Below are positions 15,328 to 17,956 of a DNA stretch of 64,000 nt, one piece after another. Below the pieces are notes generated by a model. The model saw nothing but the letters and a program-made list of their open reading frames with translations, did no database searches and was not told the DNA's origin. Origin of the DNA: Gemella haemolysans. Lineage in GTDB: Bacteria; Bacillota; Bacilli; Staphylococcales; Gemellaceae. Numbering within the stretch: position 1 is the stretch's first letter; each line of letters opens with the position of its first letter. The stretch is from assembly GCF_032567735.1 (NCBI RefSeq), contig NZ_JAWHCX010000011.1; one strand, 5' to 3'. A program made the position numbers and the translations under genes.

Positions 15328-17130
15328 TTATTCTACTGTTACTGATTTAGCTAAGTTACGTGGTTTATCCACATCTAAACCTTTAGTGTAAGCTGCATAG
15401 TATGCGAATAATTGTGTAACAACGATACTTGCGATTGGAGCAAGATCTTCGTTTACGTTAGGAATCGCATAGTCACCTTCACGTGCTAATTTTTCTAATG
15501 TAATGATTAGAGTATTAGCTCCACGGCTAGCTACTTCACTTACGTTACTACGTGTATTTAAGTCTAGTTTTGCACTTGTGATAAGAGCTACAACTGGTGT
15601 TCTTTCTTCGATAAGAGCGATTGTACCGTGTTTTAATTCTCCTCCGGCAAATCCTTCTGTTTGAATATAAGAAACTTCTTTAAGTTTTAAAGCTGCTTCA
15701 CATGCACTATAGTAGTCGATTCCACGCCCAATATAGAATGCATTACGTTCAGTGAATAAGTTTTTAGCTAAGTCTTTGATAGTTTTTGTATCATCTAAGA
15801 TTGATTCTATTGCTGAAGTAATTACTGATAATTCTTGCTCGATATCGAATTTAGGTTGTCTTGAAAGTTGTTTTGCTACTTCGTAAGCTAGTATACTTAA
15901 TGTTGCGATTTGAGCAGTATATGCTTTAGTAGATGCAACTGCGATTTCAACACCTGCATGAAGTAATAATGTATAGTCACATTCACGAGATAGAGTTGAA
16001 GCATCAACGTTAGTAAGTACTAAGAATTTATAATCTTCATTTACACTACGTAATTTCGTTAGTACTGCACGAAGGTCAGCTGTTTCTCCTGATTGAGAAA
16101 GGAAGATGAACATTGGTTTTTTCGATAATAATGGTACATTGTAAGCAAATTCTGATGCTAAGTGTACTTCTGTTGGGATACCAGCCCATTTTTCGAAGTA
16201 GTTTCTTCCTACTAAACCAGCGTTATAACTTGTACCACATCCGATAATGTATAATCTATCAGCATCTTTTACATTGTTAATAATGTCGCTATTAATATTA
16301 ACATCGTGTCCATCGAAGTAGTGAGAGATGATGTTACGCATAGCTCCTACTTGCTCATGAATTTCTTTAATCATGTAATGTTCGTGGATACCTTTATCGA
16401 TTTCTCCAGCATTTAAGTTAGTAGAGAAACTTTCGCGCTCTATGACATTACCTTCTTTATCTTCTATAGTTACACTATCTTTTTTCACGATAACAAATTC
16501 ACCATCGTTAATTTCTAAGAAGTTGTTAGTGTACTTAATCATTGCTAAAGCATCACTACCAACATAGTTTTTGTTTTCTTCTCCTAGTCCGATAAGTAGA
16601 GGACTCTTATTTTTTGCTACATATAATGTATCTTTATCTTCTGTGTCGATTAAACAAAGTGCATAAGATCCTTGTAATTTAGATACAGCTTTTTTGAAAG
16701 CTTCTTTAGTGTCAAGACCACGATCGCTATAAACTTGTACTAATTGAACGATAACTTCAGTGTCAGTTTCAGAAACAAGTTCTACACCTTTGAAAAATCT
16801 TTCTTTAAGTTCTTGGAAGTTTTCGATAACTCCGTTATGAACTAAAATAAAACGTTTGTTGAAGCTTTGGTGAGGGTGAGAGTTAGTTGTGTTAACTCCA
16901 CCGTGAGTAGCCCAACGTGTATGACCAATACCTAATTCTAGGTGAAGACCTTCAGGTATTAAGGCTTCTAAATTTTTAATACGACCTACAGACTTAGTAA
17001 CACTAGCCTCTCCGTTAACAACACCAGCAATACCAGCTGAGTCGTATCCTCGGTACTCAAGACTACTTAGTCCATCAATTAAAAATTTAACTCCATTTGC
17101 TTCTCCAACAAATCCTACAATTCCACACAT
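15328..17130 (-). CDS. glmS: Glutamine--fructose-6-phosphate aminotransferase
   Basis: 600 aa. N-terminal MCGIVG nucleophile, two SIS domains and a C-terminal ..KPRNLAKSVTVE. Confidence 0.95.
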   Translation of the reverse strand: MCGIVGFVGEANGVKFLIDGLSSLEYRGYDSAGIAGVVNGEASVTKSVGRIKNLEALIPEGLHLELGIGHTRWATHGGVNTTNSHPHQSFNKRFILVHNGVIENFQELKERFFKGVELVSETDTEVIVQLVQVYSDRGLDTKEAFKKAVSKLQGSYALCLIDTEDKDTLYVAKNKSPLLIGLGEENKNYVGSDALAMIKYTNNFLEINDGEFVIVKKDSVTIEDKEGNVIERESFSTNLNAGEIDKGIHEHYMIKEIHEQVGAMRNIISHYFDGHDVNINSDIINNVKDADRLYIIGCGTSYNAGLVGRNYFEKWAGIPTEVHLASEFAYNVPLLSKKPMFIFLSQSGETADLRAVLTKLRSVNEDYKFLVLTNVDASTLSRECDYTLLLHAGVEIAVASTKAYTAQIATLSILAYEVAKQLSRQPKFDIEQELSVITSAIESILDDTKTIKDLAKNLFTERNAFYIGRGIDYYSACEAALKLKEVSYIQTEGFAGGELKHGTIALIEERTPVVALITSAKLDLNTRSNVSEVASRGANTLIITLEKLAREGDYAIPNVNEDLAPIASIVVTQLFAYYAAYTKGLDVDKPRNLAKSVTVE

Positions 17131-17382
17131 ATAAAAAATTCCTCGCTTTTTTCTTTATTTAATTTAATTGTCGTCTCATAGAAAGTACTATGAAAATTAT
17201 ATTCACTCAAAATTATTATACTTCATAAAGTTTATGTAAACTTTAAAGGAAGCATTATGAGTCTAATAGAGAGAGGATAATGATTTTAAGGGTTCTTATA
17301 TCTAATACTGCACTCCTCCGCTGTAGCTATGAGTTACTCAAAATATAAGGAATGTAATGATGAAATATTTTGTTAGTAGCCA

Positions 17383-17668
17383 CTGTAAGTATCTTGTCGT
17401 CACTGTGTTCCTAAAGATACTAAGGTACACCCCAGCAGTGGCAACTAAAGTTTTTTACGTCATTATTCCTAAAAACTAAGTTGCTGTTGCATACGCTATA
17501 TCTAAATATTTCGTCGTCTCTTCGTTCCTAGAAATATTAAGATCTACCCCAGCAGTGGCAACTAAAGTTTTTCGCGTCATTCTTCCTTAAAAACTAAGTT
17601 GCTGTTGCATACGCTGTACCTAAGTATCTTGTCGTCACTGTGTTCCTAAAGATACTAAGGTACATCCC
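17383..17668 (-). repeat. 2.5 tandem copies of a ~115-nt two-hairpin module in the glmS leader
   Basis: The units are 17383-17495, 17496-17613 and a partial third at 17614-17668. Each is built from hairpin A (15-bp stem, loop UAGGAAC-N6-GACGAC in the glmS sense) and hairpin B (flanks CGUAUGCAACA / ACUGCUGGGG). Confidence 0.85.
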
Positions 17669-17788
17669 ATTGTACATTATCTAACGAAACTCTCTGGTTC
17701 CGAAAAAGCATCCGCCGAATTTTCGATAACTTTTTTCCTCGTCAACTAAGCTCAATTTAACCTTTAGAACTTAGTTCGGGCGCTATAA
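17660..17788 (-). promoter_or_regulatory. glmS ribozyme / GlcN6P riboswitch (core; the 3' peripheral domain may extend into the repeat)
   Basis: The minus strand reads UAUAGCGCCCGAACUAAGUUCUAAAGGUUAAAUUGAGCUUAGUUGACGAGGAAAAAAGUUAUCGAAAAUUCGGCGGAUGCUUUUUCGG. This matches the conserved glmS ribozyme core, including the A/GCGCC cleavage site. Confidence 0.85.
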
Positions 17789-17832
17789 TTATAAATTCAA
17801 ATTACCTCCTAATATTTTTGATCGTACATACT

Positions 17833-17861
17833 ATTATACTAGATGAAAAGGGCGTTGTAAA
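17833..17861 (-). promoter_or_regulatory. Candidate sigma-A promoter of the glmS leader
   Basis: Minus strand reads TTTACA, a 17-nt spacer, then TATAAT. The -10 ends about 45 nt upstream of the ribozyme cleavage site. Confidence 0.55.
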
Positions 17862-17956
17862 CTGAAAGGATATATTTACATAAGCTCAAATATTAAAATA
17901 AAGAATCTGAAAATTTAACCCTAATTTTTAGAATGAAAGAAATATAAGGCTCACTA

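Follow-up and report, generated by a model that had tools for sequence, protein, structure and literature searches.

A hairpin-module array at the probable P4.1 tip of the glmS ribozyme in Gemella haemolysans

The glmS locus of Gemella haemolysans raises the question of where a ribozyme ends when the leader that carries it is long and filled with repeats. In a 64,000-nucleotide (nt) stretch of contig NZ_JAWHCX010000011.1 (hereafter the window), glmS is preceded by a glmS ribozyme core and by more than 500 nt of non-coding sequence, which may be read either as a spacer that follows a complete ribozyme or as part of the ribozyme itself. The evidence set out below argues for the second reading, in which a 381-nt array of hairpin modules very probably sits at the tip of helix P4.1 of an intact glmS ribozyme. 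Coordinates are those of the window, and features lie on the minus strand unless stated otherwise.

The first-pass annotation of the locus had recognised a promoter, a ribozyme core starting at 17784 and the glmS start codon at 17130, and had described some 530 nt of repeat-filled, untranslated spacer between core and gene. The individual landmarks hold. The sigma-70-type promoter TTTACA-17-TATAAT is present at 17861-17833, matches the consensus at 11 of 12 positions and is kept in the leaders of the G. haemolysans group, and transcription is predicted to start near 17826. The search with the Rfam covariance model RF00234 that the annotation had called for returns a glmS match at 17795-17646 (82.8 bits, E 1.6e-17), well above the gathering score of 37, and the Rfam alignment places the core at 17784-17685. 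This core contains the cleavage-site motif A/GCGCC from 17784 (cleavage site A17784/G17783), P1 (17776-17744), GACGAGGA (17743-17736), P2 and P3 (17702-17685), as well as the motif UCGGCGGAUG; the motif positions are invariant in 15 Gemella sequences, P2 and P3 likewise do not vary across Gemella, and P1 covaries, with three pairs changed on both sides. The glmS open reading frame (ORF) at 17130-15328 encodes a glutamine--fructose-6-phosphate transaminase of 600 amino acids (aa) that scores 697 bits against TIGR01135 and is 99% identical to G. haemolysans loci. As the ribozyme lies upstream of this ORF and on the same strand, it occupies the 5' untranslated region (UTR). The end of the Rfam match is 515 nt from the ATG, and the stretch between core and ATG (about 515-545 nt) is repeat-rich, with a 117-nt unit repeated 2.4 times at 17386-17669. 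The annotation's statement that no ORF preceded by a ribosome binding site (RBS) lies there is also borne out: minus-strand ORFs do not exceed 34 aa, lack usable RBS spacing and are not conserved between strains.

The position of the true 3' end becomes apparent from relatives, for which we compared 28 Gemella/Gemelliphila glmS loci together with outgroups, all scanned with Rfam. In Gemella with short leaders, the last parts of the ribozyme are helix P4, the internal loop IL4 and a tail whose pairing partner is the P3 loop (P3.1), and the RNA after P3 reads GUAACA-UACAA-(6-26 nt)-ACAAAAU-UGUUAC-UAUCUCUU. In the Rfam alignment of the short-leader locus L025, these segments correspond, in order, to P4, IL4, P4.1, IL4, P4 and the 3' tail. 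The window contains both halves of this arrangement, GAUAAUG-UACAA-UGGG at 17681-17666 and CCC-UUAAAAU-CAUUAUC-C-CUCUCU at 17292-17268, with the repeats lying between them. On the 5' side, the P4 strand GAUAAUG (17681-17675) and the IL4 half UACAA (17674-17670) are homologous to the P4 and IL4 that Rfam assigns in L025. Beyond the repeats follow the 3' half of IL4, UAAAAU (within 17289-17283), the P4 3' strand CAUUAUC (17282-17276) and the tail CUCUCU (17273-17268), which pairs with the P3 loop AGAGAG (17695-17690) as the P3.1 pseudoknot. An unconstrained minimum free energy (MFE) fold of 17703-17262 gives P4, the GGG/CCC stem that closes the repeats, the first hairpin module (A1) and the AGAGAG/CUCUCU pairing. 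A 3' anchor of the type CAAAAU-CAUUAU is found downstream of the insertion in every Gemella leader, as a single match except in L026, which has two and for which the last was taken. The P4 3' strand, the IL4 3' half and the P3.1 tail are kept 3' of the array in 25 of 25 Gemella genome leaders and in 32 metagenome leaders, the latter being those in which both anchors could be placed.

Covariation was evaluated in an alignment of 15 distinct Gemella sequences from which the sequence between the IL4 halves had been removed. All seven pairs of P4 are formed in every sequence (100% paired), and six of them have changed on both sides, as seen in the haplotypes AUAAUG/CAUUAU, GUAACA/UGUUAC, GCGACA/UGUUGC and AUGCUG/CAGUAU. 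P3.1 comprises six pairs that are 91% paired, four of which are compensatory, with AGAGAG/CUCUCU in the window, UUAAGAG/CUCUUAA in Gemella sp. L018 and GGAA/UUCC in G. bergeri, and IL4 (UACAA / CAAAAU) is conserved across Gemella. The structure as a whole is 98.5% paired; this falls to 37-54% once the 3' partners are shifted by 1-3 columns, and none of 500 shuffles reached the observed covariation score. These patterns show purifying and compensatory selection on the ribozyme elements in the lineages that bear insertions. Because the 3' strands of P4 and P3.1 lie beyond the repeats and covary with their partners, 17669-17289 is very probably an insertion of 381 nt inside the ribozyme, at the tip of P4.1. 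Read in this manner, the ribozyme extends from 17784 to about 17268 (∼517 nt) and the leader that truly separates it from the ATG is about 131 nt. Thus, the length of the spacer described by the annotation stands, whereas its status as a separate element does not, as ∼381 nt of it belong to helix P4.1. The inserted RNA may yet alter decay or add a control layer, as the annotation proposed for the spacer.

Measurement across relatives leads to the same division, in that the ATG is indeed far from the Rfam end in the G. haemolysans group, whereas the true distance in the window is ordinary for Gemella. From the Rfam end, the ATG is 35-84 nt away in outgroups. Five short-leader Gemella/Gemelliphila lineages have 90-172 nt, and the figure increases to 243-388 nt in G. 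sanguinis, G. cuniculi, G. bergeri and Gemella sp. L018 and to 290-878 nt in the G. haemolysans group. Measured from the true end of the ribozyme, short-leader Gemella have 86-168 nt before the ATG, with G. bergeri as an outlier at 318 nt, and the post-ribozyme leader is 119-202 nt in 49 module-bearing leaders of the G. haemolysans group (genomes and metagenomes). In these same 49 leaders the P4.1-tip insertion varies from 111 to 732 nt. Six lineages have 6-26 nt there, and in G. cuniculi (111 nt) and G. sanguinis (132 nt) the tip is occupied by AT-rich sequence unrelated to the modules. Leaders whose excised ribozymes are identical differ in their insertions (290/172/350 nt in one set, 435/732/166 nt in another and 616/352 nt in a third), so that the array turns over much faster than point substitutions accumulate. 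G. bergeri (L019, about 1830-2150) has a short P4.1 of 16 nt and GC-richer hairpins unlike the modules in its 318-nt post-ribozyme leader. A record titled Streptococcus sp. UMB1385 (L006, PNGU01000003.1) has a glmS locus 99% identical to Gemella with a Gemella-type ribozyme array and is probably mislabelled or mixed.

The insertion lies distal to IL4 and is closed by GGG (17668-17666) and CCC (17292-17290). Its order is UGGG-AU, hairpins A1 (17663-17616), B1 (17615-17546), A2 (17545-17498), B2 (17497-17429), a truncated A3 (17428-17385) and C (17384-17311), then a linker (17310-17293) and CCC; further hairpins (C, D, E) and mosaic orders occur in other strains. Hairpin A has a stem of 14-15 base pairs (bp) and an 18-nt loop, UAGGAAC-NN-AG-N-GACG-NN, whereas hairpin B is built on a longer stem with bulges and its loop reads U-AAGGAAG-AAU-GACG-NN-A. 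In some B variants the loop is of the A type (AGGAAU-NAAGUGACG), and the two modules therefore share the loop motif AGGAA-N(2-7)-GACG. Pairing of the inner stem of hairpin A is kept through changes among G-C, A-U and C-G at one pair and through U-A/C-G and C-G/U-A at two, and its G-U pairs are possible only on the glmS-sense strand. In agreement with this polarity, a covariance model built from hairpin A (R1) scores 66-75 bits on the sense strand and 22 bits on the antisense strand, and it detects three copies of A in the window, each on the minus strand. As the first collection of modules had been chosen by loop motif and was biased towards loop conservation, hairpins were re-detected by their stems alone. 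In 44 leaders this gave 59 A and 52 B copies, in which AGGAA and GACG are near-invariant (among the A copies, three exceptions for AGGAA and one for GACG) and the loop positions between and after them are hypervariable. We think that the AGGAA...GACG loop is under selection, a view drawn from this contrast. GGA is found in all five loops in the window; a CsrA-type sponge RNA would show many hairpins with GGA in the loop, together with a CsrA protein in the organism, and the additional conserved GACG is not known to belong to the CsrA site. The pyrimidine tracts UUCCUUA in the loop of hairpin C (17360-17340) and CUUCCUUUAAA in the post-ribozyme leader (17256-17244) are complementary to the purine loops (UAAGGAA) of the B modules, so that loop-loop or loop-leader pairing is possible, and such complementarity may also arise by chance in AT-rich sequence. 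When the spacer is folded by itself, the MFE structure joins arms that belong to different copies of the repeat; we treat this as an artefact of repeated sequence, although such pairings are physically possible.

Several other identities were considered for the array and set aside. A coding function is contradicted by ORFs of 34 aa at most, by the position of the AUG in the B loop only 1 nt after AAGGAAG, by a stop at codon 3 of that frame in B2 and by a variable dinucleotide after GACG that is unlike synonymous variation. A sub-threshold Rfam scan of 17100-17900 for known RNA families gave chance-level matches to MIR6217, OxyS and Xist only. A kink-turn has a 3-nt bulge followed by tandem G.A/A.G pairs, with the GA of the non-bulged strand directly beside the C stem, whereas by inspection of the loop consensus the 3' GA is four nucleotides (CGNN) from the stem, which rejects a kink-turn or K-loop; by the same inspection the invariant positions do not fit a sarcin-ricin or GNRA reading. 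No module is followed by a U-tract and the leader has no terminator-like site, against a terminator or attenuator, and the number of GGGG tracts is inconsistent between strains, against a G-quadruplex.

The leader that remains after the ribozyme spans 17267-17131, which amounts to 137 nt with these bounds and about 131 nt by the offset from the tail. It contains a promoter-like site at 17240-17212, TTTACA-17-AATAAT (alternatively TTTACA-14-TATAAT), overlapped by an 18-bp perfect palindrome, AAAGTTTACATAAACTTT, at 17244-17227, then a hairpin at 17194-17175 and the RBS GAGGAA within 17146-17139. The site is kept in the haemolysans group and absent in Gemella sp. L018, and it could represent a secondary promoter or an operator. 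At the other end of the transcript, the piece that would be lost upon self-cleavage is 17826-17785, from the predicted start. It holds a Shine-Dalgarno (SD)-like AGGAGG (17810-17805) followed by a four-codon mini-frame, UUG-AAU-UUA-UAA (17800-17789); SD-like purine runs 5' of the cleavage site are also seen in glmS leaders of other Gemella and of the Jeotgalibaca and Thermosediminibacter types. The AGGAGG with its mini-frame could be a 5' stabiliser that cleavage removes.

The reading nearest to the first-pass annotation is that a compact ribozyme of ∼150 nt (17795-17646) is followed by an independent, structured spacer of 515-530 nt that modulates decay or adds another layer of control. The Rfam match is reported as complete (model positions 1-167, ending at 17646) and the repeats are strongly structured, but the P4 reported by Rfam in the window, UAAUGUA...UACCUUA, is a weak local hairpin of low posterior probability with one non-standard pair, and this surrogate would not form in strains whose first A module has another stem. 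With RF00234, short-P4.1 Gemella score 93-100 bits and inserted ribozymes 75-83 bits, a deficit of about 15 bits that is consistent with a surrogate P4 in the Rfam alignment. Given also the conserved, covarying strands 3' of the array, a compact ribozyme retains little probability. A still smaller one attaches to a relic ribozyme, with glmS transcribed from the promoter-like site at 17240-17212 and the upstream RNA irrelevant. That site matches the consensus at 10 of 12 positions and is conserved in the haemolysans group, but its TATAAT lies just 14 nt from the -35 element, the 17-nt spacing yields the weaker AATAAT, no extended -10 element is present, and the site is missing from Gemella sp. 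L018. Moreover, the core residues are invariant, P1, P4 and P3.1 show compensatory pairing in the lineages that carry insertions, and one 929-nt Logan contig, whose run is guessed to be RNA, carries array, post-ribozyme leader and ORF in one piece. A secondary promoter working alongside a functional ribozyme is less far-fetched, if unlikely.

The array might instead be a dispersed mobile or intergenic repeat (of the BOX kind, a miniature inverted-repeat transposable element or REP-like) that landed in the glmS leader by chance; like pneumococcal BOX elements, it consists of modules that form hairpins and differ in number. Copies at many unrelated loci, which would mark such a repeat, are found neither in the 64-kb window nor among metagenome matches. 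Sequence searches and R1 detect no further module copy elsewhere in the window, and R1 finds nothing above chance elsewhere in 359 kb of almost exclusively Gemella DNA, mostly glmS flanks. An exact-pattern scan of 241 million metagenome records for the hairpin A consensus, the sole module scanned for, matched 42 contigs, and all 42 matches lie in glmS leaders, with the first module at a fixed offset from the P4 5' strand wherever the core is on the same contig. Hairpin A is thus found only in glmS leaders, and a chance landing is the least credible of these explanations. A different kind of objection accepts the structure and regards the array as neutral material at a permissive site, constrained only against misfolding the ribozyme. 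Its length of 111 to 732 nt has no obvious optimum, G. cuniculi and G. sanguinis place unrelated AT-rich sequence at the same site, and mismatches in P4/P4.1 of Bacillus subtilis are not deleterious (PMC11602151). Neutrality sits less easily with 111 stem-detected copies in which AGGAA and GACG are near-invariant while stems and adjacent loop positions vary, and with one loop motif displayed on two different stems, A and B. We regard a neutral array as a serious possibility, somewhat short of an even chance.

Several points weigh against the reading set out here. The 3' anchor pattern was written after the sequences had been viewed, with the pairing itself not imposed by the pattern, and within the haemolysans group both P4 and GGG/CCC are invariant, so that the covariation comes from other Gemella species. 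Short-read isolate assemblies break at the array, where k-mer depth rises 3-7-fold, and some draft assemblies may thus have collapsed the repeat copies; insertions in long-read metagenome contigs cover the same range, 111 to 706 nt, and an assembly artefact is contradicted by recurrence in dozens of independent assemblies, long-read ones included. Transcript support is weak and comes from Logan contigs of runs whose RNA status is guessed; the array is present in them, but they carry no strand or 5'-end information, and multiple copies inflate their depth across the repeats. The invariance of the loops could stem partly from recent duplication and gene conversion instead of selection. Finally, an L4 GNRA tetraloop able to dock on P1 is not evident, and the peripheral domain may act in another way or be less effective.

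With an insertion at the P4.1 tip, the following sequence of events may be envisaged. Transcription from the promoter at 17861-17833 would produce the catalytic core P1-P2-P3 first. The polymerase would then have to cross every module of the array (A1-B1-A2-B2-A3-C), so that the P4 3' strand and the P3.1 tail emerge 381 nt behind their partners in the window and as much as 732 nt behind in other strains. Only then would the P3/P4 support domain close and set IL4 (UACAA / UAAAAU) against the core; such late closure would imply that the modules must fold locally in order not to trap the core. In Bacillus, RNase J1 degrades the 5'-OH glmS mRNA left by cleavage. By analogy, glucosamine-6-phosphate (GlcN6P)-dependent cleavage at A17784/G17783 would subsequently leave a 5'-OH mRNA for decay by RNase J1 and switch off GlmS synthesis. 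The cleavage and the RNase J1 step are inferred from the glmS ribozymes of Bacillus and Thermoanaerobacter, and the folding delay and any role of the loops are likewise inferences. The roles of IL4, P3.1 and L4 are taken from work in which IL4 and P3.1 stabilise the glmS core (PMC11602151). As the tip of P4.1 is expected to point away from the core, insertions would be tolerated there, and the array may grow, shrink and reshuffle through recombination or slippage between the 117-nt units, which would explain why close strains with identical cores carry insertions of 166 to 732 nt.

For the loop itself, the most likely readings are a docking site for a protein or RNA partner or a defined tertiary fold. 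The larger proposal, that the modules form a docking platform within the ribozyme, whose AGGAA...GACG loops recruit a protein or RNA acting in trans, or contact the 30S subunit by means of their SD-like AGGA, and so bring a second signal into glmS control, is tentative, and we give it a slightly lower chance than a neutral array. Were it true, the platform could govern the timing of P4/P3.1 closure or the decay rate of the cleaved mRNA, and gain or loss of modules would adjust the set-point from strain to strain.

The surroundings of the locus hold further regulatory elements. A 14-bp hairpin resembling a bidirectional terminator (17994-17962, both strands) lies between a 266-aa lipoprotein-like ORF (18802-18002) and the glmS promoter. 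Directly 3' of glmS is a flavin mononucleotide (FMN) riboswitch (15205-15093, minus strand, 121.9 bits), followed by a 186-aa membrane ORF (14885-14325, minus strand) that is probably a riboflavin transporter; its match to an energy-coupling factor (ECF)-transporter permease family is weak (46.6 bits against a curated cutoff of 80). The order glmS-FMN riboswitch-membrane ORF is kept in all haemolysans-group loci. Further away, a match to the trpB non-coding RNA motif (RF04312, 68.9 bits) occupies 26226-26116 on the minus strand, with a terminator-like hairpin at its end.

The Gemella leaders are of some general interest, since glmS ribozymes are considered remarkably uniform and serve in research both as targets for antibacterials and as models of the support that peripheral domains give to a catalytic core. 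Core-supporting strands that lie up to about 730 nt apart constitute a natural experiment on co-transcriptional folding and insertion tolerance, and on whether a metabolite ribozyme can gain extra regulatory modules. They also caution that the boundaries set by a covariance model can mislead when a helix holds a large insertion, and that a 'long spacer' after a riboswitch match should be checked for a missing 3' strand. Our literature search, in which the 2011 glmS census was not covered, returned no paper linking Gemella with the glmS ribozyme and none on a large P4.1 insertion. That census, by McCown, Roth and Breaker (RNA 2011), is said to describe rare glmS variants in Deinococcus-Thermus with extra stems within the core. 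These are likewise rare, lineage-specific changes to substructures that support the core, and a strain-variable tandem array in P4.1 is not known to be among them.

Compared with the glmS ribozymes of Bacillus and Thermoanaerobacter (RF00234), the Gemella RNA shares the position in the glmS 5' UTR, A/GCGCC, the GACGAGGA core, P1-P3, P3.1 and P4 with its adenine-rich IL4. The difference resides in P4.1/L4, which in the Bacillus type is a short helix with a GNRA tetraloop that docks on P1 (PMC11602151), whereas in the window a 3-bp GGG/CCC stem closes the 381-nt multi-hairpin array. The array thus takes the place of the short tetraloop hairpin; the A loops do contain GUGA or GAGA, but no standard pair closes it, and short-leader Gemella also have no obvious GNRA loop. 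The resulting length of ∼517 nt in the window, variable between strains, compares with roughly 170-200 nt in usual glmS ribozymes. Insertions at solvent-exposed helix tips around a conserved core are familiar from expansion segments and peripheral helices (ribosomal RNA, P12 of RNase P, group I introns), whose length also varies from lineage to lineage and from which the Gemella insertion differs in consisting of tandem 117-nt modules with a conserved loop motif that turn over within one species group. Pneumococcal BOX elements are also modular hairpin units with a variable number of internal units in untranslated regions, but these occupy more than 100 dispersed loci, whereas the Gemella modules, hairpin A being the one scanned for, were found only inside the glmS ribozyme. 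The regulator is in this respect an ordinary glmS ribozyme, and it is the size, the modular insertion and the variability between strains that are unusual.

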